A stretch of DNA of 52,860 bases, taken from the NCBI GenBank assembly GCA_029939535.1, contig JAOZST010000003.1, forward strand, positions 1 through 52,860, in the 5' to 3' direction. Below the pieces are notes generated by a model. That model searched no databases. It saw only the letters and a program-made list of their open reading frames with translations, and was not told where the DNA came from. This DNA comes from Desulfobacteraceae bacterium (GTDB lineage: Bacteria; Desulfobacterota; Desulfobacteria; Desulfobacterales; Desulfobacteraceae). A program made the position numbers and the translations under genes. Numbering within the stretch: the first letter of the stretch is position 1; the number at the start of each line of letters is the position of its first letter. Below are positions 10,016 through 44,341 of the stretch, piece by piece.

Positions 10016-10103
10016 GAATTATTTCCACTCCTTTTAGGCTGACACCTGACCTCTAAGGGCTAACCGCACAGGTCGAATGAGTTCCTGTGAAATTATATGC
10101 TTT

Positions 10104-10892
10104 TTACACATGACCGTAATAATCCCTGTGGGAGACCACTGAATAGGCATAGTCCAAAAGTGTGCCCCAGCTGAAAACAGGCAGATCAATTTCATGCTGG
10201 ATGGCCCTGGCAAAGGGCTGCATTCCCGTACATTCCAGCATGATGGCATTTATTTTAGGATGGGTGTCACAAAATTTTTTACAAGTGCTGATCATATCTT
10301 TTTCAGCTTTATCATAATAGATTTCAGGAATATCCGGTCTTTTTTCAGGGTTCCAGAGGTTGTCAAATTCTGGACAGCCGTATTCATCCAGGGCACCTGC
10401 AATTACAAAATTACTGTTGAGGTCAATGCCCACATTTGTCAAATGGGTGTCAGTTAAGAATCTTTTCTGGGCACAGACAATGCCCACGTCCTTATTCGGA
10501 CCGATCAACTGCTGGATAAAGGGTACCTGGAGCAGGCTGGACATGAACACAGGCACATCAACATATCCTGCCACATCTTTTTGAAAATAGGCAAAATAGC
10601 CGCATTCCGCTGCAATGGCTTTGCATCCCATGCTTTCCAGTTTTTTGGCAGCAGCAAGAATGGGCGCTCTACAGGGGGTTTTGTTCTGTTCCCAGACCAG
10701 GGTGTAATTATCAACCCCTGCTGCTATTTCATACTGGACTGGAAAGGGGAAGCCACTGGCGTTTCTAACATCTCCGGGGAATCCTGGATAGGCATCGTCC
10801 AGCACCATGATGCCAAGGCCCATACCGTAACAGGTGTGGTTTTTACGGGTTTTTGCATAGTTGATATTCAAATCACGGTTCTGGTATATCAT
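10104..10892 (-). CDS. Asp/Glu/hydantoin-racemase-like protein
   Basis: 262 aa with two pseudo-symmetric Cys motifs (AAECGYF and MLECTGM), as in two-base racemases. The start overlaps the stop of the upstream MttB-family gene by 1 nt. Confidence 0.6.
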   Translation of the reverse strand: MIYQNRDLNINYAKTRKNHTCYGMGLGIMVLDDAYPGFPGDVRNASGFPFPVQYEIAAGVDNYTLVWEQNKTPCRAPILAAAKKLESMGCKAIAAECGYFAYFQKDVAGYVDVPVFMSSLLQVPFIQQLIGPNKDVGIVCAQKRFLTDTHLTNVGIDLNSNFVIAGALDEYGCPEFDNLWNPEKRPDIPEIYYDKAEKDMISTCKKFCDTHPKINAIMLECTGMQPFARAIQHEIDLPVFSWGTLLDYAYSVVSHRDYYGHV

Positions 10893-12337
10893 CAGTTTTT
10901 CTCCAAATTATTATTGACAAGATCATTCACAGATAAAAGAATCTGGCTGGAAACCCCTTGATCCATCATGAAATTATCCAGCTCAGTTTTTATATCAGCA
11001 TCCAATTCAGGCTTTGTGTAGGACGTCAGCATCTGTTCCAATGCATTGTCTATGTTTTTGTAATATAGTTCCAGGGCTTTTCCCGGGTCGATATAGCCCC
11101 TGACCCCCACCCTGGGATTCCAGGAATGGGAACGGCATTTTTCCATGGTGTCCTTGGAGGTCAAAAATTGCCCGCCCGGTCCGACTTCCTTGAGTAAATC
11201 CATGTTCAGGGTGGTATCATTGACTTGAAAGTCAGTACTATAAAATTGTATCATATCCAGCATTTCAATATCCATGATGAATTTTTCATAGGATATGGCG
11301 GCAAAACTGTCCAGGATCCCGGCACTGTGTACAATAAGGTTAACATTGTTCCGGCAGGCAGTGAGCATTGAAAACATGCTTTCATAACCGCTCTGGGGGG
11401 ATACACACAGGGAATCAGTGGCAGCACCTCCGCAGCGGCAGGGCAGTTTAAGCATTTTTGCCAGGGCAGCTGTATATTTTCCCTGGAGGGCATAGGCGGG
11501 CGAACCAATGGATATACCACCGGTTTTAAGGTTTGCCATATTGCTTTGAACACCGAAGATTATGGGTACTCCGGGTCTGATCATCTGTGCAATGACTATG
11601 GCGGCCAATGCTTCTGCCGTTGCCAGGGCCATGTTTCCAGCCAGATCAATGGGGCCTGTGGTCCCGGCTGCCGGCGAGGGAGTTATGATCATGGGCTGGT
11701 TGAATTGTGCGCAGACCTTAATGGAGCTCAGGGCCATTTCATCCATGAGCAGAGGACTTATGGTGTTGATCAGGGTTAAAATCCTGGGTGTTTTCTGTAA
11801 CGCATCTTTACCGCCAAACATAATTGCGGCCATATCCATGATCTGTTGTATCTGGAGATGGTTTCCTGGAACCCCCATGATACATTTGTCCGATGTCAGC
11901 AATGCAGAATAAACCATGATCAAATGGCTGAGTTCAGCCGGAACATCATTGGGCTGGGCAAGTATGCCCCCATTGATTGGAAAATGCTCACATTGGTGGA
12001 CCAGTTTTGCAAATCGGATATAGTCCTTGAGCAGTGCATTCCGTGTGCTTCCTTTTAATTCGTAGATGGTCGGGCAGCCATAGCCCGGAACAAAATTTGT
12101 CTGGCTTTCTCCGATTATTGAGTTGTGCAGGGAATTTCTTCCATGGAGGGTAAAGGATTCAGGGGCTTTGCCGATCCAGGATTCAATCTGGTCCCGGGTA
12201 AAAAAAGCAATTTCCCCATCCACCCTGATATTGTTTTCTTTGACAATATCCAGTATCTCAGGGTGTTTGAGTTTGATCCCCACCTCTTCCAGGATATGGA
12301 TTCCATGGGTATAGATTTTCTGTACTTTATGGTTCAT
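10892..12337 (-). CDS. MttB-superfamily (trimethylamine methyltransferase family) protein, non-pyrrolysine type
   Basis: 481-aa uninterrupted ORF. Overall sequence pattern (ILEEVGI..., SPLLMDEMALSS..., TGPIDLAGNMALATAEALAAIVIAQ..., GYESMFSMLTA..., EVGPGGQFL) fits COG5598/MttB as I recall it. No in-frame TAG. Confidence 0.8.
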   Translation of the reverse strand: MNHKVQKIYTHGIHILEEVGIKLKHPEILDIVKENNIRVDGEIAFFTRDQIESWIGKAPESFTLHGRNSLHNSIIGESQTNFVPGYGCPTIYELKGSTRNALLKDYIRFAKLVHQCEHFPINGGILAQPNDVPAELSHLIMVYSALLTSDKCIMGVPGNHLQIQQIMDMAAIMFGGKDALQKTPRILTLINTISPLLMDEMALSSIKVCAQFNQPMIITPSPAAGTTGPIDLAGNMALATAEALAAIVIAQMIRPGVPIIFGVQSNMANLKTGGISIGSPAYALQGKYTAALAKMLKLPCRCGGAATDSLCVSPQSGYESMFSMLTACRNNVNLIVHSAGILDSFAAISYEKFIMDIEMLDMIQFYSTDFQVNDTTLNMDLLKEVGPGGQFLTSKDTMEKCRSHSWNPRVGVRGYIDPGKALELYYKNIDNALEQMLTSYTKPELDADIKTELDNFMMDQGVSSQILLSVNDLVNNNLEKN

Positions 12338-28777: not shown

Positions 28778-30850
28778 ATGAAGTTGGGATTTCGTGGTAA
28801 AATATATCTGGGTTTTTTTTCTTTATTATTGATCCAGGGCCTTGTGATTTTTTTCTGGATCAGCCAGGTCATGAAAAGTTCCATGCTGGAAGAGATAAAA
28901 AATCAGGGGATTTCAACAGGAAGAAATCTTTCAGCCCGAATGGTAGAACCCATGCTGGCCATGGATTTTCTTAGGATGAAGGTCCTGGTGGATGAAACCG
29001 TGGAATTGAGTGATGATATATTTTATGCCTTTGTTATGGATGAAAAAGGTGATCCAGTTATCCACACATTTACAGATGGTTTTCCAAAGGAACTGAAAAC
29101 AGCGAACTCTGTTTTGGCGGGGCAGAAAGGTTCCATGCAGATTCTGGATACTGGCACAAACTTGATCTATGATTATGCAGTACCAATTTTTATCAATGAT
29201 AATCGACTGGGAACCCTGAGACTGGGCCTTTTTCAAACAAGGGCTGAAAAAGCTGTTAATAAAATTATGATTTCAGCTGTTGTAACAATAATCCTGGCGA
29301 TACTCCTGGCAGGTGTCGTGGGAAGCCTGCTCCTGAATCCCGTGACCAAAAGTATTAAAAAACTGCACGAATCGTCTGAACAGGCTTTGCGGGGAAATCT
29401 TGATGTCAGAACTGCTCCCATGCTGAAAAAAAACTGCTGGGATATTATGGAATGTGGTCAGAAAGAATGCCCGGCATATGAGAATTTTCATCACAGGTGC
29501 TGGTATCTGGCCGGCACCCTCTGCCAAACCTGTGTGGAAGGAGAATATGCCAAAAGGCTGGATTCCTGCCAGCAATGCCAGGTTTACAGGCAATGTTCTG
29601 GAGATGAAATTCAGAGTCTGGCAGAAAGTTTTGATGCCATGACCCTGTCTTTGAATGGTAATCTGTCTAATTTGAGAAATGCCGAAAGTATTGTAAATGA
29701 GCAAAAAACCCTGCTCCAGACAATTCTGGATGCCATTCCGGATTTCATATCCCTTCAAGATCATGAAGGCCGGTATGTTTCGGTTAATAAAGGATTTTGT
29801 AAAATGGTGAACAAAACCCATGATGAAATTGTGGGCAGAAAAAATGCTGAACTATTTTTCAAAGGCCAGGCAGAGGTTTACGATGAGGAAGATAAAGAGG
29901 TGTTTGAAACAAGGAAACCCCTTGTTAAAGAGAATAGGGTGGTAGGGAAAAAAGGGGTAAAGTGGCTGCATGTGGTAAAGATTCCTGTTCTGGAAGCAAG
30001 GGATAGAGTCAGGGGACTTGTATGCAGCGGAAGGGATATTACCCAGTTGAAAGCTGTCCAGGAACAGCTTACCCATGCCCAGAAAATAGAATCTGTGGGA
30101 CGACTGGCAGCTGGAGTAGCCCATGAAATTAATACTCCCCTTGGGATTATTCTCGGGTATGCCCAGCTTTTGCTGGAAGATGTTGAAAAGGACGGGTTTG
30201 TGTATAAAGATGTTTCAACCATTGTTAAACAGACAAAAATCTGTTCCAAGATTGTTGCAGATCTTTTGAATTTTTCCCGTTCCAGTGAAAGCAATATTTC
30301 TGAATTTAATATTAATGAAGCCATTGACGAAGTCCTGGGAGTGATTGAACATACATTCAGCATGAACCATGTTTTTGTCAGGCGTGAATATGATAAAACC
30401 GTTTTTTTGATGAAAGGGGATAAGGAGAAGCTCAAACAGGTATTTATCAATCTTTTAAATAATGCATTTGATGCCATTGAAGGACATGGCAGTATCTGTG
30501 TCAATACAGGTATGGGGGAAACTCAAAATGAGATCAAAATATCCATATCAGATACAGGTGTAGGGATTTCCAAGGAAAATATAAAAAAGATATTTGAGCC
30601 GTTTTATACCACCAAGGGTCCGGACCAGGGGACAGGGCTGGGGTTATCAGTTACCTTTGGAATTATAAAAGAGCATAATGGAAGTATAAAAGTTTTTTCT
30701 CCTCCCTTATCCCGGGAAAAAGAAGAACAGGGGACAGAATTTATTGTCCTGCTACCCTCTGGCATAAATGTAAAAAATAGTGTAAATATAAAATCCGGTT
30801 TAAATTGGAACCCTGGTTTACAGATGAAAAAGGGAGAGCTAAATGGGTAA
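28778..30850 (+). CDS. Sensor histidine kinase (periplasmic domain, HAMP, Cys-rich module, PAS, HisKA, HATPase_c)
   Basis: Two TM segments flank a periplasmic domain of about 150 aa. H-box GVAHEINTPLG. G-boxes DTGVGISKEN and GTGLGLSV. A Cys-rich 54-aa insert lies between HAMP and PAS. Confidence 0.9.
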   Translation: MKLGFRGKIYLGFFSLLLIQGLVIFFWISQVMKSSMLEEIKNQGISTGRNLSARMVEPMLAMDFLRMKVLVDETVELSDDIFYAFVMDEKGDPVIHTFTDGFPKELKTANSVLAGQKGSMQILDTGTNLIYDYAVPIFINDNRLGTLRLGLFQTRAEKAVNKIMISAVVTIILAILLAGVVGSLLLNPVTKSIKKLHESSEQALRGNLDVRTAPMLKKNCWDIMECGQKECPAYENFHHRCWYLAGTLCQTCVEGEYAKRLDSCQQCQVYRQCSGDEIQSLAESFDAMTLSLNGNLSNLRNAESIVNEQKTLLQTILDAIPDFISLQDHEGRYVSVNKGFCKMVNKTHDEIVGRKNAELFFKGQAEVYDEEDKEVFETRKPLVKENRVVGKKGVKWLHVVKIPVLEARDRVRGLVCSGRDITQLKAVQEQLTHAQKIESVGRLAAGVAHEINTPLGIILGYAQLLLEDVEKDGFVYKDVSTIVKQTKICSKIVADLLNFSRSSESNISEFNINEAIDEVLGVIEHTFSMNHVFVRREYDKTVFLMKGDKEKLKQVFINLLNNAFDAIEGHGSICVNTGMGETQNEIKISISDTGVGISKENIKKIFEPFYTTKGPDQGTGLGLSVTFGIIKEHNGSIKVFSPPLSREKEEQGTEFIVLLPSGINVKNSVNIKSGLNWNPGLQMKKGELNG

Positions 30851-31249: not shown

Positions 31250-32290
31250 TTAGGCTGGATCTTTTTTTGTCGTGTCTGGCGTATACGTATCGGCCATATA
31301 ATGAAAATATTTTTGTACAAATTTTCCTGAAATTGTATCGGCCAGGGAAAAGGTGAAATCAGTATCTGGCAAAAATTGTCCTGAAAAGGCCAGGAATATA
31401 GTTTGGGAAAGTTCAACAAGCATATTCTGGATTTCATGTTTGTCTTTTGAAAAACCAGGTACTCCATAAATCCTGCACCTGGCAGGTCTTGTCTCGTATA
31501 TCCTGCAGCAGGAATTATAATTAAGCGGGCAAAGAGTGTTTTCTTTCTTATATGTCTTGACAGCCCTTTCTATCAGAATATCCCTTTGAACAGATGAAAA
31601 ATGTTTGTTCATTTTTGAATGGAGATAAATTACTTCTATGAGTTGAAGATCAAAAGGTTCATGGCAACATTTATCCTCACCCCTGCCGCATTGAATATTT
31701 TCTCCTTTTGTATGATTTTGAATTTCCTCATCAATGTTTTTTATCAAAGATTCATAATCAGAAAAAAAATCGTTTAGATCCACCCTGTTTTTAATCTCCA
31801 GGGAGGGTTCCCTGATCTTAAGGATTCCTGATTTTTTACCATATTTTTTTAATAATTTCCACTGACCGTAATTGGAAGGGTTTGCATTGGATGACTTTAA
31901 CCTTTTTGAAGCTGATTTAAGGGAAAGGCCTCTGCGAATCATATAGGAAGTGACAAAGGTTCCTGTCCTTCCCACCCCGTGCCTACAGTGGACCAGAACT
32001 TTTTTGCCAAGGTAAATGGCTTCATCAAGCCAGGCCAGGGCTTCTTCCATGGCTTCCATTTTAGGAATATCCTCGTCCCAGATGGGAAGATAACAAACTT
32101 CAAAACCTGCGGACTCTTCAATATCATGGAGATCGCTGAATTCAGCGCAAAGGTTAACAATAGCATCAACTCCCTGGTTTTTTATGGACTCCAGTTCAGC
32201 AAATGACATAGGGGCATATCCAACAGCAATACTATCTGTGATCCATGTTATGGGGAATGTGGACATTTGTTCTTTTCCCAATTTTATCAC
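31250..32290 (-). CDS. Dual-specificity (Cys-based) phosphatase domain fused to a YkgJ/UPF0153-type Cys-cluster domain
   Basis: HCxxGxxR(S/T) loop VHCRHGVGRTGT at about residue 100. The C-terminal half has CGRGEDKCCHEPF ... CPLNYNSCCRIYETRPARCRIYG, the YkgJ pattern. 4-nt overlap with the upstream gene. Confidence 0.7.
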   Translation of the reverse strand: MIKLGKEQMSTFPITWITDSIAVGYAPMSFAELESIKNQGVDAIVNLCAEFSDLHDIEESAGFEVCYLPIWDEDIPKMEAMEEALAWLDEAIYLGKKVLVHCRHGVGRTGTFVTSYMIRRGLSLKSASKRLKSSNANPSNYGQWKLLKKYGKKSGILKIREPSLEIKNRVDLNDFFSDYESLIKNIDEEIQNHTKGENIQCGRGEDKCCHEPFDLQLIEVIYLHSKMNKHFSSVQRDILIERAVKTYKKENTLCPLNYNSCCRIYETRPARCRIYGVPGFSKDKHEIQNMLVELSQTIFLAFSGQFLPDTDFTFSLADTISGKFVQKYFHYMADTYTPDTTKKDPA

Positions 32291-34926
32291 CCTTCTTTTT
32301 CAATGTCCGGTTCAATGTCCGGCCTGAAATCATATCGGCCGTTCATAAAATGATCAATCATTGTTTCCATATCCTGATTTTCTTTTAGATACATATCCAT
32401 GAGTTTTGTAGTCCCCAGAAGCTGTCCGATAATTTCAAGGGTTTCTTCCATGTCCTTTAATGAACCATGCTTGAATTCAGCATCAATCAGGTCTGATTTG
32501 ACCTGGACCATAAATTTGAGCCTTGTTAAAATTCCTTTAATAAAATTAGCCCTGAGAGTTTTTCCAACAGGGTTACCGCCGCCGCCGGAAAACCTGAAAA
32601 GGATATAATTATTTTTTTTTGAAGAGGTGCAGATGGTGTCCAAAATGACAAAATGATATCCAAACCTGAAGTTTACATTTAAATACTCCTTTGACACGAC
32701 TGCATAGCTTCCAAACTGGGGTGAATCAGCAGAGATAATTCCTCCGGCCATGACGATTCGGTCATACTCTTCCCAATCAAAATGGGAGGTTTCAGACCAG
32801 GATATGCCAGGGTTTGAAAGCCCTTTCAATACCGCTTTCATGGGAAGACTGGCAATATTTTCCGGTTTTATGAACTTTTCATTTTTCTGGTGGTTGTTTT
32901 TTTTGGCATCGTTTATACCCTGGCCCACATCAAGAACATAAAAGAGCATGGGGATACCGGAGTTGAGTTGTTTTGCCCCTTTTTTCCGGCTGCCTTTTCT
33001 ATTTCCTCCTAGAAACATTTCTTTTACAGCAGTTTCATGGGTAAACCGGATAATATCATGGAGGGATCTGCATGATTCCGGTACAAAAGAGCTGTCTTCA
33101 GGATCTGTGAGTTTCAATTTTGTACAAAAATTAATTACATACTGGAGTTTGGTCATAAAGGGACTGTCTTGGAAAAAAATATCTTTTTGCCTGGAGTCTT
33201 CCTTTAGATGTTTTGTTTCTCCATCGTATACAAGGCAAGCATTGGCATCCACGGTTACCAGATTCCCCTGGACAAGATCACGAAAACCTTTTGCAATGTT
33301 TACAATGGAAGGAACCCCGAATTCCCTGGCAATGGATGCAAAATGGCTGGCACGGCTTCCAGTTTCGATAATAATGGCTTTCATTTTGTTGATTGCCGTA
33401 ACAAATTGGGGCAGGCCATGTCTTACCACAAGAACTGATCCCTGGGGAATCTGGGCTATTTGTGATAATTGCTCAAGTATGTATACTGGACCAGAACCAA
33501 TACCAGGACACACAGGCTCTCCGCCTGAACAAATTATTCTATTTTTAATATTCATTGGAATATCCGTATCCTGGGTCTGAGTTACAGTATTTTGGACACC
33601 AGGGACAGGGATATTCAAGGGCCTGGACTGAAGGATAAAAAGACTGCCGGATTGATCCTGGCACCATTCAATATCCTGGGGTTCATTAAAATATTCTTCA
33701 AGGGAAAATCCCCACCGGGCAAGGGATAGTACAGAGGGTTCATCAAGGGAAAGAATATTTTTTTGCTGTTGATTTGTATCAATGATTTTGGTCTGGCTTT
33801 CCGTCTGGCCGTCTGCCTGGCCCTTATGGGTTAAAACCATTTGCTTCAGTTTTTCTGCTGCTTTTCTGCTGACAATGGTTCCAGGCTCTTTTTTTGATAT
33901 TTTGATAAGGTCAGGAGAGACTTCCCCTTCCACCAGCAGCCCACCCTGGCCCCAGACCGAGTGGATCAATATATTGTCAGAAACAGGATCTTGAATATCC
34001 CGGGTATAGATTATCCCGGATGCTTTTGAATCGATCATTTCAAGGACCAGGACAGCCATGGGGGTTGCATCATCAAGTATGCCATGGCTGATCCTGTAAA
34101 ATAAGGCCTGGGCAGAATATTTGCTGGCAATGACCTGTTTATATCCCCGTAAAACATTCTTTTTTTCTACATTTAATATTGTTTCATACTGACCGGCAAA
34201 GGATGCTTTTCCATCCTCTTTAGCGGCGCTGCTACGGAGCGCAACCCTGAAATTGCCTTCATCATTGTTTTCAAGGCGGTAAATAGCATTATTTACTGCT
34301 ATTTCAACATCTTCGGGTATAGCGCCATTTAAGATTAATTGTTCAATTTCGAGGGCTGTTTGTTCCAAAGAGGATACGTCGCTTATATCAAGATCAGATA
34401 GCTTTTCATTAATAGGGTCTCGTAGATCATTAGCCTCCAGAAAAAAATGAAAGGCATTGGTTGTTATCACAAATCCATCGGGCGTAGGTAAGTGAAGGTC
34501 TTTATTCAAAAGGGCCAGAGCAAATGCTTTTTTGCCTGCAACGGATTCATTAAATGATGAGATCTTATCGAACTCAATGGTAAAGGGTGGTGAAAAATCA
34601 AACTCCTTTGGAGCGATCATAAATTGGATATAAAAATCAAATTTCTTAAAATAGGATTTCAAACTCCAATAGTTTGAAGGGGACATTTTTAAAAGCTCTT
34701 CAACCATATTTGACACAGAGGCGCCAAATTGCTCATAGGTTTTCACAATGGCCTGGAAATCATATTTTTTTTGATTATAATAGATATCCTCCAGGGAGGC
34801 CATGAATTCATGGGCAGCCTTGTCATGCTCCAGCAAAGCCTTAAAGGCTTCATATTTTTCCCTTAAAATTGTTCCCGGAGAAAATACCTGATAGGTCCAG
34901 TATCGGAATAAGTTTTTAATCAACAT
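32287..34926 (-). CDS. PEP-utilising enzyme family protein (ATP-grasp PPDK_N domain + swivelling phosphohistidine domain + uncharacterised N- and C-terminal domains)
   Basis: 879 aa. VALRSSAAKEDGKASFAGQYETILNV (PPDK_N nucleotide-binding domain). Swivel domain GIGSGPVYIL...IIIETGSRASHFASIAREFGVPSIV, with the catalytic His at about residue 528. The C-terminal 300 aa or so are not recognisable as a PEP/pyruvate-binding TIM barrel. Confidence 0.8.
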   Translation of the reverse strand: MLIKNLFRYWTYQVFSPGTILREKYEAFKALLEHDKAAHEFMASLEDIYYNQKKYDFQAIVKTYEQFGASVSNMVEELLKMSPSNYWSLKSYFKKFDFYIQFMIAPKEFDFSPPFTIEFDKISSFNESVAGKKAFALALLNKDLHLPTPDGFVITTNAFHFFLEANDLRDPINEKLSDLDISDVSSLEQTALEIEQLILNGAIPEDVEIAVNNAIYRLENNDEGNFRVALRSSAAKEDGKASFAGQYETILNVEKKNVLRGYKQVIASKYSAQALFYRISHGILDDATPMAVLVLEMIDSKASGIIYTRDIQDPVSDNILIHSVWGQGGLLVEGEVSPDLIKISKKEPGTIVSRKAAEKLKQMVLTHKGQADGQTESQTKIIDTNQQQKNILSLDEPSVLSLARWGFSLEEYFNEPQDIEWCQDQSGSLFILQSRPLNIPVPGVQNTVTQTQDTDIPMNIKNRIICSGGEPVCPGIGSGPVYILEQLSQIAQIPQGSVLVVRHGLPQFVTAINKMKAIIIETGSRASHFASIAREFGVPSIVNIAKGFRDLVQGNLVTVDANACLVYDGETKHLKEDSRQKDIFFQDSPFMTKLQYVINFCTKLKLTDPEDSSFVPESCRSLHDIIRFTHETAVKEMFLGGNRKGSRKKGAKQLNSGIPMLFYVLDVGQGINDAKKNNHQKNEKFIKPENIASLPMKAVLKGLSNPGISWSETSHFDWEEYDRIVMAGGIISADSPQFGSYAVVSKEYLNVNFRFGYHFVILDTICTSSKKNNYILFRFSGGGGNPVGKTLRANFIKGILTRLKFMVQVKSDLIDAEFKHGSLKDMEETLEIIGQLLGTTKLMDMYLKENQDMETMIDHFMNGRYDFRPDIEPDIEKEG

Positions 34927-35047
34927 GATGGATAATTTGTTAAGTGTTTATTGTTTGAATTCAATGACTACTCTAAGAATAGCATTGAAAACAAAAGAAT
35001 ACAAACAGGGTTTTCTAAATTTTATTGTGCAATAAAAAAAGTGCAAT

Positions 35048-35079
35048 GCAATATTTTTATTGCGCAATATTTTTATTGC
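35048..35079. promoter_or_regulatory. Two perfect tandem copies of the 16-bp palindrome GCAATA-TTTT-TATTGC (candidate activator/enhancer site)
   Basis: gcaatatttttattgc occurs at 35048-35063 and again at 35064-35079. It is embedded in a block (35031-35092) with further TGCAAT/ATTGC half-sites. Confidence 0.6.
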
Positions 35080-35276
35080 AATTTATTATTGCTATAAGTC
35101 AATCTCCTTATGTTCCAAGGCTTTCCCCGAATAATCGCATGGAATTGAATTTGATGTCGGTTTTGTTTCGGGTTTCAGTATAAATGCTGTTTTTTTAATT
35201 TTAAATAATAGTTTTTTATTTAATTCCAGATAGTTGTATTGTTACTATATTGAATTTTGGTCTGCAACAACCCTGC

Positions 35277-35292
35277 TGGCACGGTTATGGCT
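35277..35292 (+). promoter_or_regulatory. Putative sigma-54 (-24/-12) promoter
   Basis: TGGCACGGTTATGGCT has GG (35278-79) and GC (35290-91) separated by exactly 10 nt. The -24 half matches TGGCAC perfectly. The -12 half is TGGC rather than TTGC. Located 60 nt upstream of ATG 35352. A sigma-54-type activator is encoded at 42944. Confidence 0.55.
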
Positions 35293-35351
35293 GTATATAT
35301 TTTGAGCTGTTCATATAAACAGAATAATATTTGCTAAGGAGGCAATAAAGT

Positions 35352-38144
35352 ATGGATAAAACGTATATGGAATCAAGGGCAAAAAGGTATCAATTTCTTT
35401 CCACCCTGTATCGCGATGAGATTCCTCTGAAATTAATTCAAAGTATGCAGGGCGAACAATTTCTTACTGGGTTCCTTGAATCTGTAAAAGGATGTGGATT
35501 TATGGATCTAACCAGTGGTGCAGAGGCCATGGCTTCCTGTTTGAAAAATACAGACCCGGAAAAATTGTATAAAGACTTACGTTATGATTATGCAGACATT
35601 TTTCTAAACGCAGGGCCCAATCCCACATTCCCATATGAATCTGCTCACACAGGGAAAACCCCTGTGCTTATGCAAAAGCCAGTTTTAATCCTCAGAGAGT
35701 ATTTTAAAAATGCAGGTGTTCATAAAAATCCTGGCTATAAGGATCTTGATGATCATATTGCAGTTGAAATGGAATTTTTACGGTATCTTCTTGAAAATCA
35801 GAAATCTGAGATGTACATAAACTTTTTTAAAGATACCTATCTTAAATGGGTAAATTCCTTTTGTGATCAACTGACTGCTTCTGCAAAAACCGCATTCTAT
35901 CAAGGTCTTGCTCATTTTACACGGGGAGCCTTGATGTGTGAAAATATGCGGATTGATGGCTTCAGCAGGGGTGAAGAGACCACCCAGAGAATGATGGAAG
36001 CTTGTGCTGCCCTGGATCTTGATTCTGCTTATTTTACGCTGGCAGAAGGTGCTGTTGAGCAAGAGCCATTAAAGGAAATCCCCAGTCATTGTTACACTTG
36101 TGGTGCCTTGTGCGGTATGACAGCAAAAGTTAAAGACGGTATATTGACAGGTGTTTCAGGGCTTCCCGGTGATCCTAAAGGTGGTGGAAGACTTTGCCCT
36201 AAAGGTGCTGCATCTCCAAGCCATCTATATTCACCGTACCGGCTTAAAGAACCCCTCATTAAAGAGAATGGCCGTTTCCGAAAGGCAAGCTGGGAAGAGG
36301 CTCTTGACGCTGTCGCAGACGGTATTAAAAGTATAGAACCTGGAAAATTAGGATTTTTTAGAGGAAATGATTTTATCAACTGGATACATGAGGGACTCTT
36401 TGATCATCTGGGATGCCCCAAAATGACCCACAGGCCCATGTGTGACAATGCCAACCGTATGGCAAATGAGCATAACCTCAATGACAAGAGACCATGGATT
36501 AATTATGAGGAATCCGATTATATTATCCATTTTGGTATGAACGAGTTTGCTACTTCCTATGGACAGCGGAAAACCACTCAATTGAAATCTGCCCTTAAAA
36601 ACGGAGCAAAGCTGGTGGTTTTTGATCCCAGAAGATCTGATACGGCTGCTGCCGCTACAGAGTGGATTCCCGTAAAACCTGCAACTGATGGTGCTGTTGC
36701 ATTGGCAATGTGCTATGTTATTATAAAAAATGAGCTCTATGACAAAGAATTTGTCAAAAACTGGACACATGGTTTTGATGAACTTAAGAACAGGGTGCTT
36801 GGTACGGAAGATGGAATTGCCAGAACCCCTGAATGGGCCGCAGAAATCAGTGATGTACCTGCAGATACCATAGAGCGGATTGCCATGGAATTTGCCATGG
36901 CTGAAAAGAAAGGGGTTATGTCCTGGACCGGAGTGGCACAAGTTCCCAATGGTATGTACGGGACTGCTGCATTACAAGCTTTAAATGGGCTATGCGGTAC
37001 ATTCGATGCTCCTGGAGGACCCTCTCTTCCCTTTAAAAGAAAGTTGAAATCTCCATGGGGAGAGGGACAGGAAAAACCTCCCAAGGGATCTGCTCCCAAA
37101 ATTCATAAATATACCATGTGGTCTGGTTGGGGCCCGGCCAATACGCTGTCTGCTGTAGAAGCAGGCAAACTTAAAGGTATGATCCTCTATTTCGGCGATC
37201 CAGTCCTTTCCTGTGGTAACCAGGAAGATTCTATAAAAGCCATAGAAAAAATGGAATTTAAGGCCGCCATTGAAGCGTATATGTGTAATAGTGCTCTATT
37301 GTGTGATGTTATTCTTCCTGATACCTCATGGCTGGAACAGAGTCAGATAAAATCTGACTGGCTTTACGATGCTTTTATTGCCTACTATGCTGAGATTGTT
37401 GAGCCCATGTATAACACCATGCCTGTGTGGAAAATAACAGTGGAGCTGGCGAAAAGACTAAATTTAGGCAAATATTTCCCATGGGACAATATTGAAGATG
37501 CATTGCGCAATCAGATGGAGGGAACGCCGTGGTCTTTTGATGAACTTAAGGCAAAAGGATTTATTATTACAGATAAGGCAGAATATTTTAAATATAAAAA
37601 ATGGGGAAGTATTAACCCACCGGAAGGATATGGCAGCTCAGGAAAGAGTAAAACAGGAAAATATAACTTTGTGAACCCTGTTGCCCAGGAAAAGGGGATA
37701 GATCCTCTGCCTGATTTTAAAGAACCTGACAAAGAGTTGCAGCCTGACAAAGAATATCCGTTTGTTTTTGGAAATTTTCGGCTGTTTGGGCATGAACATT
37801 CTTCAACTTTTAATAATTTTCAGCTCATGAAAACAAATGAAAAAAATCTTTTGTGGATCAATAAAATCGATGCTAGAGAACTTGGCATAGCTGAAGGTGA
37901 CAAGGTCAGGCTGCAATCCCCATGGGGCAGTGTGGAAACGGTTGCAAGTCCAACATGGTCAATTATGAAGGGAGTTCTTGGCAGCCCAGGAGGTTTTGGA
38001 CATGTTCGTGGAATTGAAGGTGATCCCAAATTTCAGGTAATGGGCGGGATCAACACGCCTAGTCTCATGAAATCAGATGCTTCTGAAAAGGATGGCGGAA
38101 CCACCATTCTAAAATATATAAAAACCAAAGTAGAAAAAATATAA
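35352..38144 (+). CDS. Molybdopterin (bis-MGD) oxidoreductase catalytic subunit with N-terminal TorD/DmsD-like chaperone domain
   Basis: Residues 1 to about 225 carry the TorD-family pattern (RYDYADIFLNAGPNPTFPYESAHTG...YFKNAGVHKNPGYKDLDDHIAVEMEFLRYLLE). Next comes the 4Fe-4S motif HCYTCGALCG...RLCPKG (36087-36197), then molybdopterin and C-terminal MGD-binding domains (FVFGNFRLFGHEHSST..., VRLQSPWGSVE). No RR Tat motif. Confidence 0.85.
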   Translation: MDKTYMESRAKRYQFLSTLYRDEIPLKLIQSMQGEQFLTGFLESVKGCGFMDLTSGAEAMASCLKNTDPEKLYKDLRYDYADIFLNAGPNPTFPYESAHTGKTPVLMQKPVLILREYFKNAGVHKNPGYKDLDDHIAVEMEFLRYLLENQKSEMYINFFKDTYLKWVNSFCDQLTASAKTAFYQGLAHFTRGALMCENMRIDGFSRGEETTQRMMEACAALDLDSAYFTLAEGAVEQEPLKEIPSHCYTCGALCGMTAKVKDGILTGVSGLPGDPKGGGRLCPKGAASPSHLYSPYRLKEPLIKENGRFRKASWEEALDAVADGIKSIEPGKLGFFRGNDFINWIHEGLFDHLGCPKMTHRPMCDNANRMANEHNLNDKRPWINYEESDYIIHFGMNEFATSYGQRKTTQLKSALKNGAKLVVFDPRRSDTAAAATEWIPVKPATDGAVALAMCYVIIKNELYDKEFVKNWTHGFDELKNRVLGTEDGIARTPEWAAEISDVPADTIERIAMEFAMAEKKGVMSWTGVAQVPNGMYGTAALQALNGLCGTFDAPGGPSLPFKRKLKSPWGEGQEKPPKGSAPKIHKYTMWSGWGPANTLSAVEAGKLKGMILYFGDPVLSCGNQEDSIKAIEKMEFKAAIEAYMCNSALLCDVILPDTSWLEQSQIKSDWLYDAFIAYYAEIVEPMYNTMPVWKITVELAKRLNLGKYFPWDNIEDALRNQMEGTPWSFDELKAKGFIITDKAEYFKYKKWGSINPPEGYGSSGKSKTGKYNFVNPVAQEKGIDPLPDFKEPDKELQPDKEYPFVFGNFRLFGHEHSSTFNNFQLMKTNEKNLLWINKIDARELGIAEGDKVRLQSPWGSVETVASPTWSIMKGVLGSPGGFGHVRGIEGDPKFQVMGGINTPSLMKSDASEKDGGTTILKYIKTKVEKI

Positions 38145-38148: not shown

Positions 38149-38532
38149 ATGACCATTATAGCCTTAAAATCGATTTTTGTTGGTGTTGGCGGATCAATAA
38201 TCCTTGCCGTTTTTTGTTCAACATTTATTGCTGCGGATAAAATTTTGTTCATCATGCCGCTTTTTATTGCTTTTAACGGTGCAATGATGGGCTATCGTCT
38301 GGTGGAAGTGCTGAAAAATTTGATTATAAATATTTCTCTTTTTTCTTTTGTACTGGGAACCGGAGGAGGCGCGCTTACTTTTGTAGCCTTGAATTTTGTC
38401 ATAATTTTTGCCGGACCCTTTATGGGGAACGCCTTTTCACTCAATCTAACCGATTTGTTTGTTTATATGGCTGTATCAGGAATCACAAGTTATCTGGGGG
38501 CAAAACTGGCTGTCAGATATTTTAATTTATAG
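38149..38532 (+). CDS. Small hypothetical integral membrane protein (about 4 TM helices)
   Basis: 127-aa hydrophobic ORF starting 4 nt after the oxidoreductase stop. Confidence 0.55.
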   Translation: MTIIALKSIFVGVGGSIILAVFCSTFIAADKILFIMPLFIAFNGAMMGYRLVEVLKNLIINISLFSFVLGTGGGALTFVALNFVIIFAGPFMGNAFSLNLTDLFVYMAVSGITSYLGAKLAVRYFNL

Positions 38533-38567
38533 TTTTTTTGTGTGTTATTTTAAAAAAGGAGAATCAA

Positions 38568-40259
38568 ATGAGGAAAATTGTTACGTATTTTATTATGCTG
38601 GCGCTGGCTTTGCTTGTCTCAGCGTCAGGCTCTTTTGCCAACAGTATGTCTGCATCCACCTATAAAGCAGGGGATGTGGTTGAAATAACCGGTAAGATTG
38701 CCCCGGGCCAGGATTTGTATATTGCCATTGCCCAGCAGGAAATGTTTGCACCCAAAGACACCAACGGTGCCTTTGAAATAAAAAGATTAAAAAAGGATGG
38801 GAAAAAGAAAGGATTTGATCAGGATACCGCTATCCCGCCCCTTTATTATATGATTACCAACGTCCCTGAAAAGTTTGGTAAAGTAGATAAGAAAAAATTC
38901 GGCGGCCCTTCTGTTCTATTGAAAAAAGGACAAGGGATTTACAGCACCACCATGTTCTATCTGAAAAAGAAATTAAGCGATGTGGATGCAACAGCCCGGG
39001 GTATGCTCGGACCTATCAAATCAGATGAACAATGGAATTTATTCAAATATGCCAATGAGAGTGGCTATGGTATCAATACCATTGTTAAAGAAGGAAATAG
39101 AAAAGGGAAAGTGGTTATTTTTTCACGATCTGTCATCGGTGACCAGTCAAGTGGCAATTACTGGGACAAGGGCACTTCCGTAAAACTGGATAAAGCAACT
39201 GGTGAATTTACTGCCTCCTTTAAATCTTTCAGGCATACTCCGCCCAACACAAAATTTGATGTGTATGCCAATGGCGCTAAAATTGGAAATTATACTGTAG
39301 AAAAAAACGGGTTCTGGCTTTCCAAAGGGTTCAGGTATATGAATCCACTATGGATTGTTATCGGTGCCATTCTGGTTGGAACCTATTTCTCCATGATCGG
39401 TGCTGCCGGTGGTATGCTCATGGCAGCCTTCCAGGTATTGGTTGTCAACACAATGGGGCCAGTGGGTATCAATGCTGCCAATGTATTAAAGCCCTCTAAT
39501 ATTGCCCTGACCCTGTTCTCCCCCCTGGGATCTTTCTGGCGATATGCCAAGATTGAAAAGCGCGTTGCCTGGCCAGTGGGGATCTCCTTTGGTGTGGGTA
39601 TTTTTATCGGGTCCATCTGGCTGGGTAAATATGTATCAGCAGTTCTGCCCATGAAAGCCTATAAGGAATGGCTGGCCATTCTGGTGGTTATAATGGGAAT
39701 CAAGACCCTGATGGAAATGAGACCTGCAGCCATGGCAAAAAGAAAAAATATCAAGGCCATGACCCAGAAATTTAATAAAGAAGTTGCTGCGGCCAAGGCT
39801 GAAGGACGTTCAGCACAGATGGGCAGTATTGAGCCGGTAAAAACAGGGCTGATGGATTATAGATTTAAATTCTGGGGTGAAGAATTTACCATCAACCCCT
39901 TGCTTTTTGCCTTCCTGGGAATTTTTATTGGTATCGTATCCAGATCCTTTGGTATTGGCGGTGGATTCCTCCTGGTACCTGCAATGACCACTTTGGCAGC
40001 TCTTCCCATGTATGTGGCAGTTCCCATATCCTTGATCGGCACCTGTTTTTCCAGTATTGGTTCCTTTGTCGGATATCTCATGGCAGGATACCTGCCTGAC
40101 ATGACCCTTGGTATAGCCATTATTATAGGCGGGTTTGCCGGTGGTATGCTGGGCAGCCGGGCCCAGAAAATGTTCTCGGAAATGACCCTGAAAGTTATTC
40201 TTGCAATTACTTTGTTCTTCCTGTTTTTCAGGTTCTTTAAGATTGAAATCTGGATATAA
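38568..40259 (+). CDS. Signal peptide + periplasmic domain of about 250 aa fused to a TauE/SafE (TSUP) family anion permease
   Basis: AGGAG RBS before ATG 38568. Signal MRKIVTYFIMLALALLVSASGSFA. The C-terminal half is polytopic, with the family motif FGIGGGFLLVPAM and a charged insert between the two half-repeats. Confidence 0.75.
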   Translation: MRKIVTYFIMLALALLVSASGSFANSMSASTYKAGDVVEITGKIAPGQDLYIAIAQQEMFAPKDTNGAFEIKRLKKDGKKKGFDQDTAIPPLYYMITNVPEKFGKVDKKKFGGPSVLLKKGQGIYSTTMFYLKKKLSDVDATARGMLGPIKSDEQWNLFKYANESGYGINTIVKEGNRKGKVVIFSRSVIGDQSSGNYWDKGTSVKLDKATGEFTASFKSFRHTPPNTKFDVYANGAKIGNYTVEKNGFWLSKGFRYMNPLWIVIGAILVGTYFSMIGAAGGMLMAAFQVLVVNTMGPVGINAANVLKPSNIALTLFSPLGSFWRYAKIEKRVAWPVGISFGVGIFIGSIWLGKYVSAVLPMKAYKEWLAILVVIMGIKTLMEMRPAAMAKRKNIKAMTQKFNKEVAAAKAEGRSAQMGSIEPVKTGLMDYRFKFWGEEFTINPLLFAFLGIFIGIVSRSFGIGGGFLLVPAMTTLAALPMYVAVPISLIGTCFSSIGSFVGYLMAGYLPDMTLGIAIIIGGFAGGMLGSRAQKMFSEMTLKVILAITLFFLFFRFFKIEIWI

Positions 40260-40939: not shown

Positions 40940-41423
40940 TCCGGGGTCATTTTTACGATTCATACCTGTATTCGCAATTGCCAGTTTGATCCTGCTGCCC
41001 CTGGATGTTTATGCCATCCAGATTCATACTAGTTCAGAAGGAATTATTACCCACCAGGTGGGTCATCTTTTTTTTCTTTTTTCCATGGTGGTTCTTATTT
41101 TTACCATCACAGGCAAGGGGCTGAACAAACAAAAAGGCTGGCGCATGATTCAATATTCAGCATTCTTTTTTGTCCTCTGGAATATTGATGCGATTATTGC
41201 TCATTTTTTAGATAACCAGATTTGTGCCATAAAAATAGAAAATATCTCTTTGACCCGGATAAAACTGGTCAGCCAGAATGATTCTTCTGTTCTTCCCTGG
41301 CTGTATTATATCCTAAAGCTGGATCATCTGTTAAGCGTTCCAGCCATGCTGTTTCTTTTCAAAGGACTTTCAAATCTTGTGGATGACCAGAAAAAGATAA
41401 TAAAGGAAAAGGCCAGTCAATGA
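40917..41423 (+). CDS. Hypothetical membrane protein (about 4 TM helices)
   Basis: 168-aa hydrophobic ORF. Overlaps the previous ORF by 23 nt and the following kinase gene by 4 nt (ATGA). Confidence 0.5.
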   Translation: MPKKYWFNPGSFLRFIPVFAIASLILLPLDVYAIQIHTSSEGIITHQVGHLFFLFSMVVLIFTITGKGLNKQKGWRMIQYSAFFFVLWNIDAIIAHFLDNQICAIKIENISLTRIKLVSQNDSSVLPWLYYILKLDHLLSVPAMLFLFKGLSNLVDDQKKIIKEKASQ

Positions 41424-42922
41424 TTGTCTCGTTTATTCCCATACTGGCGGTAGATGTTCTAGGATCTGTGGCCATGGTGGTGATTTCCCTTTTATCCCTT
41501 TACAAAGCAAAAATATTAAGGGGAATGGATCCGGATAATGCTATTTTTCTTTATCTTTTATGGATCAGTGTGGGATTGACGATTTTTTCGGTATCAAGAG
41601 CCTTTGGACATATTTTAAAACAATTTTTAGTGCTCACTTCAAATACAGACACCTGGCACGCCATCAGTGCTTATTCAGGCAGTGTCAACACTGTATCTTT
41701 CATGCTGGTTGGCTTGATCACTCTGTTTTTTAACCAGAATTGGAATATTAATGAAAAAATTTTTTCCGGCAGAAAAAAACTGGAGGAAACCCATATTAAA
41801 CTCATGGATCTGAACCAGACCCTTGAAAATAAAGTTGTTGAGAGGACGGAAAGACTCACGAGCAGCGAGCATAAATGCCGCAGGATATTTGAGCAGTCCC
41901 TGGACACAATTCTTGTTACGGACGCTGAGTTCAGGATAATGGAGACCAATCCGGCTGGTATAGCACTCATGGGATATGACCGGGAAGAGATGATTGAAAA
42001 AAAAATGATCCTGGGGGGCTTTTTTTTGGATTCGTCTGAATGGGAAAAACTCAGCGAAAAAATAAAATTTAAAGAATATATTTTAAATGAAGAAGCTGAA
42101 TTTATAAGGCCGGACAATGAATCCATACTGGTTTTGATTACCGGTGGTCTTGATTATGGCGCCTTTGGATGTGCAAAAACCTATCACTTTATCATCAAAA
42201 ACGTGAATGACAAAAGACAGATGGAACAGCAGATTGCCCAGGCAGATAAACTTGCTGCCCTGGGTGAACTTTCCGCGGGCGTGGCCCATGAAATAAATAA
42301 TCCTCTGGGAATTATTCTTGGCTATACACAGCTTTTATTAAAACAGGAGCAGGAACCTGAGAACAAAGATGATTTAAAAATTATAGAAAAACATGTGCAG
42401 AATTGCAAAACAGTTGTATCTGACCTTCTTTCCTTTTCACGGAAAGGGTCAACTGAGATGAGTATCGTTGATATTAACAAGGTGGTAGACGGTGTGGTTA
42501 AATTTTTATCCAACCATTCTGATTTCAGGAATATTGAAATGACCTTGAATCCCCATAAAGGGGACAGGCTTAATATTCTCGGCAATGAACAGGAATTATC
42601 CCAGGTTATCATAAACCTTGTTATCAATGCCTGTCATGCTGTTGACCGTAAGGGTAATATTGATATTGTCACGGAAAAAACAGATCAGGATAAGATCTTC
42701 ATTAGGGTGAAGGATAACGGCAAAGGAGTGGAAACAAAGAATTTAACCAGGATTTTTGATCCGTTTTTCACCACAAAGCCGGTTGGACAGGGTACTGGCC
42801 TTGGGCTTTCCGTGGGATATGGCATTATTAAACGTCACCAGGGAGATATCAGTGTAAAAAGCAGCAAAGGCAAAGGCACTGTTTTTACCATCAGTCTGTC
42901 TGCCGTTAAATCAAAAGCTTAA
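41420..42922 (+). CDS. Membrane-bound sensor histidine kinase (multi-TM N-terminus, PAS, HisKA, HATPase_c)
   Basis: H-box GVAHEINNPLG, N-box INLVINACHA, G-boxes DNGKGVETKN and GTGLGLSVG. PAS-like segment after a coiled coil. Confidence 0.9.
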   Translation: MIVSFIPILAVDVLGSVAMVVISLLSLYKAKILRGMDPDNAIFLYLLWISVGLTIFSVSRAFGHILKQFLVLTSNTDTWHAISAYSGSVNTVSFMLVGLITLFFNQNWNINEKIFSGRKKLEETHIKLMDLNQTLENKVVERTERLTSSEHKCRRIFEQSLDTILVTDAEFRIMETNPAGIALMGYDREEMIEKKMILGGFFLDSSEWEKLSEKIKFKEYILNEEAEFIRPDNESILVLITGGLDYGAFGCAKTYHFIIKNVNDKRQMEQQIAQADKLAALGELSAGVAHEINNPLGIILGYTQLLLKQEQEPENKDDLKIIEKHVQNCKTVVSDLLSFSRKGSTEMSIVDINKVVDGVVKFLSNHSDFRNIEMTLNPHKGDRLNILGNEQELSQVIINLVINACHAVDRKGNIDIVTEKTDQDKIFIRVKDNGKGVETKNLTRIFDPFFTTKPVGQGTGLGLSVGYGIIKRHQGDISVKSSKGKGTVFTISLSAVKSKA

Positions 42923-42943
42923 TTGTGATCAGGAAAGAAAAGA

Positions 42944-44341
42944 ATGAAGACAAAAATACTTGCAGTTGACGATGAAAAGGATATGACAAGGCTTTTGCAG
43001 AGAACCCTGGAGTCTGAAATCAATTGCAGGGTTTCCATGGCATTTTCAGCAAAAATGGCCTTGGGCATTCTTGAACAGGAATCCTTTGACCTGGTTATTT
43101 GTGATATCAGAATGCCGGGTATGGATGGTTTTGAACTGCTCGGGCATATAAGGGATAGTTATCCTGATTTGACTGTGGTAATGTTGACAGCTTTCGGAAA
43201 TATCGAGTCTGCTGTAAAAGCCATTAAAAAAGGGGCCTATGATTTCATTCCCAAGCCATTTGAGCAGGCTGAAATTATTTTTAAAATTCAAAAAGCCCTT
43301 GAAAGAAGTCTGCTGCTCAAAGAAAATAAACGCCTTTTAAAGGAAAAGACAAAGATCAGTCCTTCTCAATTGATTGGGAAGAGTGAACCCATGCAAAGGG
43401 TGTTTGATCAGATCAATCTGGTTGCATCAAGTGATGTCACCGTGTTGATAACAGGGGAATCAGGAACAGGGAAAGATCTGACTGCAAGATCCATCCACGC
43501 CCTGAGTCCGAGAAAAGATAAGTTTTTTATTCCGGTCAACTGCCCGACCATTCCGGAAAATATTCTGGAAAGTGAATTATTCGGATATAAAAAAGGTGCT
43601 TTCACCAACGCCAACATGGACAGGGACGGACTTTTCCAGGAGGCTGACAAAGGGACTATTTTCCTGGACGAAATAGGAGATATAGGACCCAGTATTCAGA
43701 CAAAGTTATTAAGGGTTCTCCAGGAAAAAGAGATAAAACCCCTTGGGGACACTAAAGTAAAAAAGGTGGATGTACGAATTATCGCATCCACCAATAGAAA
43801 CCTTAAGCAGAAGATTGCCAACCATGAATTCAGGGAAGATTTTTTTTACCGGCTTAACGTGCTGCCCATTGAGCTGCCGCCCTTACGAAATCGCATAACA
43901 GATATTCCCATTCTTGCCGAGCACCTTGTGGCAAAGCATTGTAAAAAGTTGAAAAAAGCATTGAAAATAATATCCGAAGAGGTGATGGATCTTTTGATGA
44001 AACAGCCTTGGCCAGGCAATGTAAGGGAACTTGAAAATGTTCTTGTTCAGGGAATTCTATATTCAAAAGAGAGTATAATTGATCTGTCAGATATTCCTTT
44101 ACAGGAAGCAGACTCAAAAAATTATTGTTTAAAAGGGTTTGATTGCAACAGCATTTCAGTCCTGCCCTATAAAGAAGCAAAAGAAAAATTACTCCAGGAA
44201 TTTAATTACGATTATATCGGTGCCAAACTTTCCATGACCAAGGGCAATATTACCCAGGCAGCCAAGCAATGCAGTATGGATCGCCAGGCCCTGCAGCAGA
44301 TCATGAAGCGGTATGGCATTGATCCTGCTCATTTTAGATAA
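42944..44341 (+). CDS. Sigma-54-dependent response regulator (REC + AAA+ + Fis-type HTH; NtrC family)
   Basis: Receiver DLVICDIRMPGMDG. Walker A GESGTGKDL. GAFTGA-loop variant GAFTNA. Walker B TIFLDEIGD. C-terminal HTH GNITQAAKQCSMDRQALQQIMKRYGI. Confidence 0.9.
   Translation: MKTKILAVDDEKDMTRLLQRTLESEINCRVSMAFSAKMALGILEQESFDLVICDIRMPGMDGFELLGHIRDSYPDLTVVMLTAFGNIESAVKAIKKGAYDFIPKPFEQAEIIFKIQKALERSLLLKENKRLLKEKTKISPSQLIGKSEPMQRVFDQINLVASSDVTVLITGESGTGKDLTARSIHALSPRKDKFFIPVNCPTIPENILESELFGYKKGAFTNANMDRDGLFQEADKGTIFLDEIGDIGPSIQTKLLRVLQEKEIKPLGDTKVKKVDVRIIASTNRNLKQKIANHEFREDFFYRLNVLPIELPPLRNRITDIPILAEHLVAKHCKKLKKALKIISEEVMDLLMKQPWPGNVRELENVLVQGILYSKESIIDLSDIPLQEADSKNYCLKGFDCNSISVLPYKEAKEKLLQEFNYDYIGAKLSMTKGNITQAAKQCSMDRQALQQIMKRYGIDPAHFR

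Follow-up and report, generated by a model that had tools for sequence, protein, structure and literature searches.

Does a chaperone that matures a molybdoenzyme have to let go of it? The question is raised by one gene in a 52,860-nucleotide stretch of contig JAOZST010000003.1 from a Desulfobacteraceae bacterium (assembly GCA_029939535.1; the whole stretch is called the window), in which a domain of the TorD/DmsD/NarJ family, whose members are known as redox enzyme maturation proteins (REMPs), and the catalytic subunit of a molybdenum or tungsten enzyme form a single polypeptide. The answer that we favor, as a probable rather than a firm one, is that a cytoplasmic PsrA-like enzyme keeps a TorD-family chaperone in cis, which would hold the enzyme's own linker and core until the cofactor has been inserted, with no release needed.

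The fusion gene occupies positions 35352–38144 of the forward strand and runs without interruption over 930 amino acids (aa) and a stop codon. The ATG at 35352 is probably the true start because a good Shine–Dalgarno sequence lies 7 nt before it. A Pfam scan placed four domains in the protein, each over its curated threshold, and the gene is laid out as follows.

35338..35344, forward strand: Shine–Dalgarno sequence AAGGAGG, 7 nt 5' of ATG 35352
35358..35954, forward strand: TorD/DmsD/NarJ-family (REMP) domain, aa ~3–201, all-helical by prediction (PF02613, NF003442, 1n1c, and fold match)
35955..36071, forward strand: linker, aa 202–240, at the position of the Tat (twin-arginine translocation) leader or remnant leader of relatives
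36072..36239, forward strand: FS0 [4Fe-4S] domain, aa 241–296 (PF04879 at 241–294)
36090–36092, forward strand: Cys247 codon TGT
36240..37457, forward strand: molybdopterin oxidoreductase domain, aa 297–702 (PF00384, E = 1.3e-30)
36441..36443, forward strand: codon of Cys364, the predicted Mo/W ligand in motif HRPMCDNANRM (alignment to PsrA 2vpw; translation checked)
37773..38033, forward strand: molybdopterin dinucleotide-binding domain, aa 808–894 (PF01568, E = 4.3e-13)

The N-terminal domain is matched by PF02613 (Nitrate_red_del/TorD) at aa 57–172 with an E-value of 2.2e-19 and 70.3 bits against a gathering cut-off of 22.2. Likewise, the NCBIfam TorD model NF003442 covers aa 4–194 (E = 7e-20), and Shewanella massilia TorD (PDB 1n1c) aligns over aa 8–191. 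The scores for the TorD equivalog NF003442 (71.8 bits) and the DmsD equivalog NF008632 (44.6 bits) lie under their cut-offs of 132 and 162, respectively. By these scores, the fused domain is a member of the TorD/DmsD/NarJ family and an orthologue of neither TorD nor DmsD. The fold predicted by AlphaFold2 (AF2) for aa 1–245, with a predicted local distance difference test score (pLDDT) of 90, matches YcdY 9m26 (template modeling score TMt 0.76–0.77) and DmsD 3cw0 (0.72), with further matches to 1s9u, 2o9x, and TtrD 2xol. An earlier reading of the DNA letters without database searches (the sequence-only reading) had proposed a TorD-like domain at the N terminus, and this identity is borne out by the hidden Markov model match to PF02613, the 1n1c alignment, and the predicted YcdY/DmsD-like fold. 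The family-core motifs that it quoted are all present: YADIFL at aa 80–85, PYES at aa 94–97, and DDHIAVEMEFLRYL at aa 133–146. Its estimate of about 225 aa for the domain was too long, as the TorD fold stops at about aa 201. The order of TorD domain and Fe–S motif was given correctly, but the two do not follow each other directly, a linker of about 40 residues (aa 202–240) lying between them.

Residue conservation was scored over 60 homologues of the fusion protein. In the TorD domain, E23, A81, F84, L85, N86, P91, P94, Y95, P104, H135, F158, W166, F182, and Y183 are invariant. Residues Y80 (conserved to at least 90%) and F84, P94, Y95, and H135 (all invariant) correspond to DmsD W72, F76, P86, W87, and H127, respectively, in the 1n1c alignment with a numbering offset of +3; H135 marks the DH motif. 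DmsD F76, P86, and H127 are reportedly leader-binding pocket positions (Chan et al. 2008). W72 and W87 of DmsD are leader-binding pocket residues (PMC3912628). Judged by this alignment, the leader-binding pocket residues of the REMP family are kept in the fused domain. A REMP is usually free-standing and dissociable, whereas this domain stands in frame with its presumed client, both here and in more than 100 homologues. The N terminus of the fusion protein, MDKTYMESRAKRYQF..., is the first TorD helix, and aa 1–245 contain no twin-arginine (RR) motif.

The catalytic part carries the complete domain set of the DMSO reductase superfamily, whose enzymes bind a Mo/W-bis(pyranopterin guanine dinucleotide) (bisPGD) cofactor, with PF04879, PF00384, and PF01568 all above threshold. 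The 4Fe–4S motif CX2CX3C...C noted in the sequence-only reading was confirmed as C247, C250, C254, and C282, the cysteines of FS0, which are invariant in the 60 homologues, as is the motif D425-P426-R427 (DPR). The invariant motif HRPMCDNANRM contains Cys364, the aligned counterpart of the cysteine of 'sLCTAP' in PsrA of Thermus thermophilus (2vpw), which we take to be the Mo ligand. The invariance of the FS0 cysteines, of Cys364, and of the DPR motif makes the catalytic part look cofactor-competent and not degenerate. PsrA (2vpw) is also the closest solved relative of aa 239–885 (241 bits, 28% identity, TM 0.81); the next relatives are ArrA, Nap, FdhF, and acetylene hydratase, the last of which (2e7z) is the third-best PDB sequence match (E = 3e-42). 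The predicted fold likewise matches ArrA, Nap, and FdhF besides PsrA.

To describe the neighborhoods of the fusion gene, 86 loci were clustered, the 25 largest neighbor clusters were read from sequence, and Pfam annotation was made for five loci. No gene for a PsrB-type (four-cluster ferredoxin) or NrfD-type (C) partner is linked in the 86 loci, and a GltD/SudA-like flavoprotein is nearby, in convergent orientation, in only 6 of them. The PhsA equivalog NF012032 scores 280 bits, far under its cut-off of 694. Because of this low score, the lack of a twin-arginine leader, and the lack of a linked PsrB/NrfD-type gene, the enzyme is not considered a PhsA/PsrA orthologue. The best explanation of the alignments is an enzyme of an uncharacterised clade that is nearest to the polysulfide/thiosulfate reductases PsrA/PhsA. 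In the simplest reading, the enzyme would be cytoplasmic and monomeric and would be fed electrons by a soluble donor.

The same architecture is found far beyond the window. From a protein search space of 5.8 billion, the 120 best clusters were listed; 116 of these encode uninterrupted proteins of 899–973 aa, and listed entries contain all four Pfam domains down to 57% identity. A survey with one genome per GTDB species showed relatives in the genomes of 199 Thermodesulfobacteriota species; among the 80 best matches, almost all span aa 1–930. They come from Desulfobacterales, Desulfatiglandales, Desulfarculia, Desulfohalobiaceae, Desulfobulbaceae, Desulfovibrionaceae, and Desulfomicrobiaceae, and further from Desulfomonile tiedjei and Dethiosulfatarculus sandiegensis. 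The finished isolate genomes of Desulfohalobium retbaense (WP_015752852.1, UniProt C8X5M1) and Desulfosarcina widdelii (DSCW_32130, WP_155304686.1) both carry the fusion, and the nearest genome is an uncultured Desulfobacteraceae/Desulfobacula-type metagenome-assembled genome with 91% identity. The single-gene fusion seen in the sequence-only reading therefore recurs in well over 100 independent sequences. The sole 'two-gene' case found is contig L086 (5001–7818), in which the TorD and catalytic parts lie in different frames and the called genes overlap at 5656–5681. As the similarity in the second frame begins 5' of the called start codon, L086 probably represents a frameshift (error or pseudogene) inside a fused gene and not a true two-gene arrangement.

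Two other candidates were rejected. An internal start that would give a TorD-less isoform is not conserved: M213/M214 are not conserved and have no good Shine–Dalgarno sequence before them, and the linker as a whole has neither a conserved internal Met nor a conserved ribosome-binding site. The closest short matches, P0122–P0128, are not unfused ancestors beside a PsrA-like gene, as all are fragments of fusions, P0126 being a fusion truncated at a contig end. The first real stand-alone relative found is P0131, with 34% identity and no enzyme gene alongside it on its short contig.

Selection acts on both halves of the protein. Over 25 sequence pairs of 90–96% identity, the median ratio of nonsynonymous to synonymous substitution rates (dN/dS) in the TorD domain (0.065) is close to that in the catalytic part (0.062), with the linker at 0.12. 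By this measure, purifying selection acts equally strongly on chaperone domain and enzyme. The pairwise distances of the TorD and catalytic parts covary (r = 0.77; Mantel test, 0 of 999 permutations), and the TorD domains among the fused proteins match one another at no fewer than 83 bits. Both findings would fit a single fusion after which the two parts were passed on together.

The linker consists of a short amphipathic helix and a conserved motif, L221-x-L223...YFTL..G233. The alignment with PsrA opens at PsrA residue 36, opposite query residue 239, so that the linker (aa ~203–238) takes the place of the 35 residues with which the deposited PsrA chain begins; the N-terminal domain sits where exported relatives carry the Tat leader, as the sequence-only reading had placed it. 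A full-length AF2 model built with a 60-sequence alignment gave pLDDT 89 and a predicted template modeling score (pTM) of 0.90, with a linker pLDDT of 81–95. By our estimate, an unplaced domain of 200 residues (21% of the chain) would keep the pTM near 0.8, and since the observed value is 0.90, the TorD domain appears confidently placed against the core. As to whether the TorD-like domain docks on the catalytic domain, the model presents the whole chain, by its pTM, pLDDT, and DSSP, as one confidently packed unit. When aa 1–245 were modeled by themselves, the pTM was 0.89 and the linker was still confident (pLDDT blocks 81, 87, 94, and 80). In this model, a strand at 230–232, within YFTL, has its only multi-residue partner strand at 123–125, near isolated bridges at Y95 and H135, which suggests that the pocket side of the TorD domain would hold the linker even without the enzyme part.

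How would such a chain mature? According to two sources (PMC10609526, PMC3316669), REMPs recognize a Tat or remnant leader, which is often helical, by hydrophobic contacts and bind a second site on the enzyme core; TorD promotes insertion of Mo-bisPGD even without a leader and contacts MobA; and NarJ serves the non-exported NarG via a remnant leader. For TorD, both the leader and the core of the client are binding sites (PMC10609526). By analogy, the TorD domain of the fusion would fold first, as the chain leaves the ribosome, and the linker of about 40 residues, standing in place of the Tat leader or the NarG remnant leader, would be held in cis on the peptide-binding face of TorD. The TorD domain would also touch the catalytic core and keep the apo-enzyme open after FS0 insertion until Mo/W-bisPGD arrives, possibly recruiting MobA or the cofactor as TorD does. 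Release of the chaperone would never be needed because the enzyme would be neither exported nor joined to a membrane partner, and a fusion would therefore be tolerated and would guarantee a 1:1 stoichiometry. From the function of the family and the strong purifying selection, we reasonably infer a self-chaperoned insertion of the cofactor. The Tat-independent route of the sequence-only reading agrees with the missing twin-arginine leader but is not new in itself: NarJ and NarG are cytoplasmic and TorD acts on a leaderless TorA core (PMC10609526), and only the covalent fusion is unusual.

It is tentatively possible that the protein is a lasting single-chain chaperone–client complex, in which the linker would be a captive pseudo-leader permanently seated in the TorD pocket and the TorD domain would also occupy the 'second site' on the core. 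If true, release of a REMP would not be mechanistically required for cofactor insertion or activity, and the protein would provide a stable 1:1 object with which to locate the second REMP-binding site by cryogenic electron microscopy or crystallography.

Several points weigh against a chaperone that works in cis. The linker sequence is poorly conserved and variable in length, and it contains no twin-arginine or NarG-like motif; because of this, the argument for its origin from a leader is a positional one only. Both the docking site on the core and the linker–pocket contact are read from pTM, pLDDT, and DSSP strings only. At long range, the TorD part diverges 1.8 times as much as the enzyme and retains only about 30% identity between subclades where the enzyme still has 68%, which would also fit a less demanding structural role. 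To our knowledge, NarJ, whose client is cytoplasmic, is separate in all known cases, and the argument that lack of export allows fusion leaves the cause of the fusion unexplained. The drop of TorD identity to about 30% is abrupt and occurs in the D. widdelii and D. retbaense subclades, where the chaperone domain may have diverged faster or been replaced.

The domain might instead have been exapted as a structural or regulatory module of the holo-enzyme that covers the FS0 surface, as PsrB does in PsrABC, docks a soluble electron donor, or gates access. The prediction of a domain that is rigidly packed in the full-length model (pTM 0.90), not loosely tethered, would suit such a module, as would its faster long-distance divergence and the absence of a linked electron-transfer partner gene, which leaves the surface near FS0 otherwise exposed. 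Nevertheless, the invariant residues are those of the REMP leader-binding pocket and form no new surface as far as can be told, and the short-range dN/dS of the TorD domain equals that of the enzyme; moreover, a permanent role and a role in maturation are mutually compatible. We regard exaptation as unlikely.

Classical pro-peptide chaperones are removed by proteolysis after maturation, and the TorD domain could similarly act as an intramolecular chaperone that is then cut off in the linker. While the linker is the least constrained segment (omega 0.12), varies in length, and lies where signal peptidase would cut exported relatives, it shows no conserved cleavage motif and is ordered and packed in the AF2 model, and no protease gene is linked in the 86 loci, which makes a cleavable pro-domain improbable. 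Still harder to sustain is action in trans, with the fused domain serving other molybdoenzymes or Tat proofreading and its attachment being incidental. REMPs can be promiscuous, and DmsD serves both DmsA and YnfE/F; however, this fusion is kept with one enzyme clade only, the long matches with a catalytic domain, among those scanned, all belonging to the same family (P0127, 54% identical), the TorD and catalytic parts are co-inherited, and a bulky 700-aa appendage would hamper service to other clients. Finally, a sequencing or assembly error that joined adjacent chaperone and enzyme genes near 36030, for which the different frames and two overlapping called genes of the metagenomic contig L086 might speak, can be dismissed with near certainty, as it is ruled out by a frame that is continuous here as well as in 116 of the 120 best clusters, which come from independent projects and include the two finished isolate genomes, by the lack of a conserved internal Met or Shine–Dalgarno sequence in the linker, and by the L086 pattern itself, which is that of a frameshift within a fused gene.

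Comparing the fusion with known systems places the preferred reading, a cytoplasmic PsrA-like enzyme with its chaperone in cis, among its nearest precedents. TorD and TorA share with it the chaperone family and fold, TorD aligning with aa 8–191. However, TorD is separate and must leave before Tat export of TorA, whereas here the chaperone is fused and there is no Tat leader; in addition, the catalytic part of the fusion has an FS0 cluster and TorA has none. NarJ and NarG are nearest in logic: NarG is a non-exported enzyme, a REMP of the same superfamily binds the helix formed by its N-terminal remnant Tat leader, and the core has a second site. Unlike the fused domain, NarJ comes from a gene of its own and by its release controls the docking of NarGH to NarI; the fusion has no linked NarH/NarI-type partner, its catalytic part is PsrA-like and not NarG-like, and its chaperone is in cis. 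PsrA (of T. thermophilus PsrABC) and PhsA share the FS0 motif and a cysteine Mo ligand, the latter being predicted here. Yet they are Tat-exported and work with PsrB, which has four Fe–S clusters, and membrane-bound PsrC, whereas the fusion has neither leader nor linked B/C genes, and the active-site motif is CTAPRE in these enzymes and CDNANR in the fusion.

The monomeric cytoplasmic Mo/W-bisPGD enzymes FdhF, assimilatory NasA/NarB, and acetylene hydratase (2e7z) resemble the fusion in that they consist of a single FS0-bearing catalytic subunit and lack both a Tat leader and a dedicated B subunit. We know of no fused REMP domain in any of them, and no REMP-fused enzyme of the FdhF, NasA/NarB, or acetylene hydratase type turned up in the searches run. 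PF02613 domains are also fused to a redox module in TorD–Fer4_22 proteins of about 570 aa (P0142, P0169, and P0225; P0142 at L089 6001–7716), which are encoded directly after, and in one operon with, the genes for the alpha (892 aa) and beta (Fer4_11) subunits of a Mo-enzyme. In these, however, the fused partner is an Fe–S protein and the catalytic subunit stays a separate gene. Among the ten long matches scanned, no other fusion of PF02613 to a catalytic subunit was found, P0127, which has catalytic domains, being of the same family. In the same phylum, the MOLY cluster (MolyA, MolyB, and the TorD-type MolyC) of sulfur-disproportionating Desulfobacterota likewise combines a PsrA/PhsA-like Mo-enzyme with a TorD-family chaperone, but as three separate genes, with an enzyme that is predicted to be extracytoplasmic and with a B subunit present (PMC12998232).

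What the gene offers is no new principle but a natural joining of chaperone and client that is conserved and has been overlooked. Its domains are already annotated in databases, for example under the JGI name 'anaerobic selenocysteine-containing dehydrogenase/TorA maturation chaperone TorD'. In the full-text literature searched, a coverage that excludes subscription journals, a natural fusion of a REMP with a catalytic subunit was nowhere found described; the words 'fusion' and 'fused' are absent from a NarJ-subfamily survey, and targeted reading of the 2023 maturation review likewise brought up no such fusion. How TorD/DmsD/NarJ-type chaperones hold an apo-molybdoenzyme open for the large bisPGD cofactor is an unresolved question in the field. 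According to that review (PMC10609526), a second REMP-binding site has been identified only for NarG, and small-angle X-ray scattering of TorD–apoTorA did not locate one. Mapping of the second site is obstructed because chaperone–client complexes are transient; a conserved fusion amounts to a covalent 1:1 complex and could make the question experimentally tractable. That a REMP can stay attached to a presumably active enzyme is also relevant to whether release belongs to the mechanism or is needed for export or membrane docking only.

Genes next to the fusion gene give hints of its function. Those that recur among the 86 loci, and a promoter-like element, are found in the window at the following positions.

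35277..35292, forward strand: sigma-54-type -24/-12 promoter-like element TGGCACGGTTATGGCT, 60 bp 5' of the start codon, a consensus match only
38149..38532, forward strand: 127-aa membrane protein directly 3' of the fusion gene; its homologues (cluster 7) are adjacent in 11 of the 86 loci
38538..40259, forward strand: 573-aa TauE/SafE-family permease (PF01925, 104 bits) with a signal peptide and an extracytoplasmic N-domain of ~260 aa
40352..41423, forward strand: EMC3/TMCO1-like (195 aa) and 168-aa membrane proteins, recurring in 19 and 15 of 86 loci
41420..44341, forward strand: histidine kinase (500 aa) and sigma-54-dependent response regulator (465 aa), in 22 and 13 of 86 loci

The TauE/SafE-family permease, present in 32 of the 86 loci, is the commonest neighbor along with the EMC3/TMCO1-like and 168-aa proteins, and the recurrent neighbors are found in either orientation relative to the fusion gene. 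The permease orthologue of D. retbaense (locus L001, 4113–5816) consists of DUF8269, by precomputed annotation, and TauE; the N-domain of the TauE protein in the window had no Pfam match in the library scanned. The presence of this permease hints that a sulfur-containing or other anion is handled in the cytoplasm under sigma-54 two-component control. The kinase/regulator pair at 41420..44341 likely regulates the fusion gene, and the arrangement as a whole suggests an inducible module for carrying an anion across the membrane and converting it in the cytoplasm. What emerges is a widespread, uncharacterised, and apparently monomeric cytoplasmic PsrA-like family of sulfate reducers. Its link to a TauE-family permease makes it a candidate for some step of sulfur or oxyanion metabolism that has yet to be assigned.

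The element TGGCACGGTTATGGCT has one mismatch to TGGYAY-N5-TTGCW. Of 74 loci, only three, those of the close relatives L006, L007, and L010, have the -24/-12 element at the same position (-76 to -78), and because the motif recurs only in the closest relatives, the sigma-54 link is tentative. Upstream of the element, at 35025–35085 of the forward strand, lies a cluster of palindrome-like TTGCNCAAT/TGCAAT repeats, possibly enhancer-binding sites. In a more distant subclade, a gene for a 123-aa single receiver domain stands just 5' of the fusion gene (32 of 86 loci), about 380–400 bp upstream of it in L002, L004, L005, and L051–L070.

Three further loci of the window were noted. On the reverse strand, 31250–34926 encodes an 879-aa protein with PPDK_N and PEP-utilizers domains that lacks the usual C-terminal TIM-barrel domain, and a 346-aa dual-specificity-phosphatase fusion; this pair lies divergently beside the fusion gene, an arrangement shared by the close relatives L006, L007, L010, L046, and L071. 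A histidine kinase at 28778–30850 (forward strand) has a cysteine-rich insert, CWDIMECGQKECPAYENFHHRCWYLAGTLCQTCVEGEYAKRLDSCQQCQVYRQC, between its membrane-proximal part and the PAS/kinase core, which may be a metal- or redox-sensing module. At 9419–12337 on the reverse strand, an MttB-family methyltransferase (481 aa) and two small downstream genes, which appear unrelated to the fusion gene, may form a methylamine or glycine-betaine methyltransferase system.

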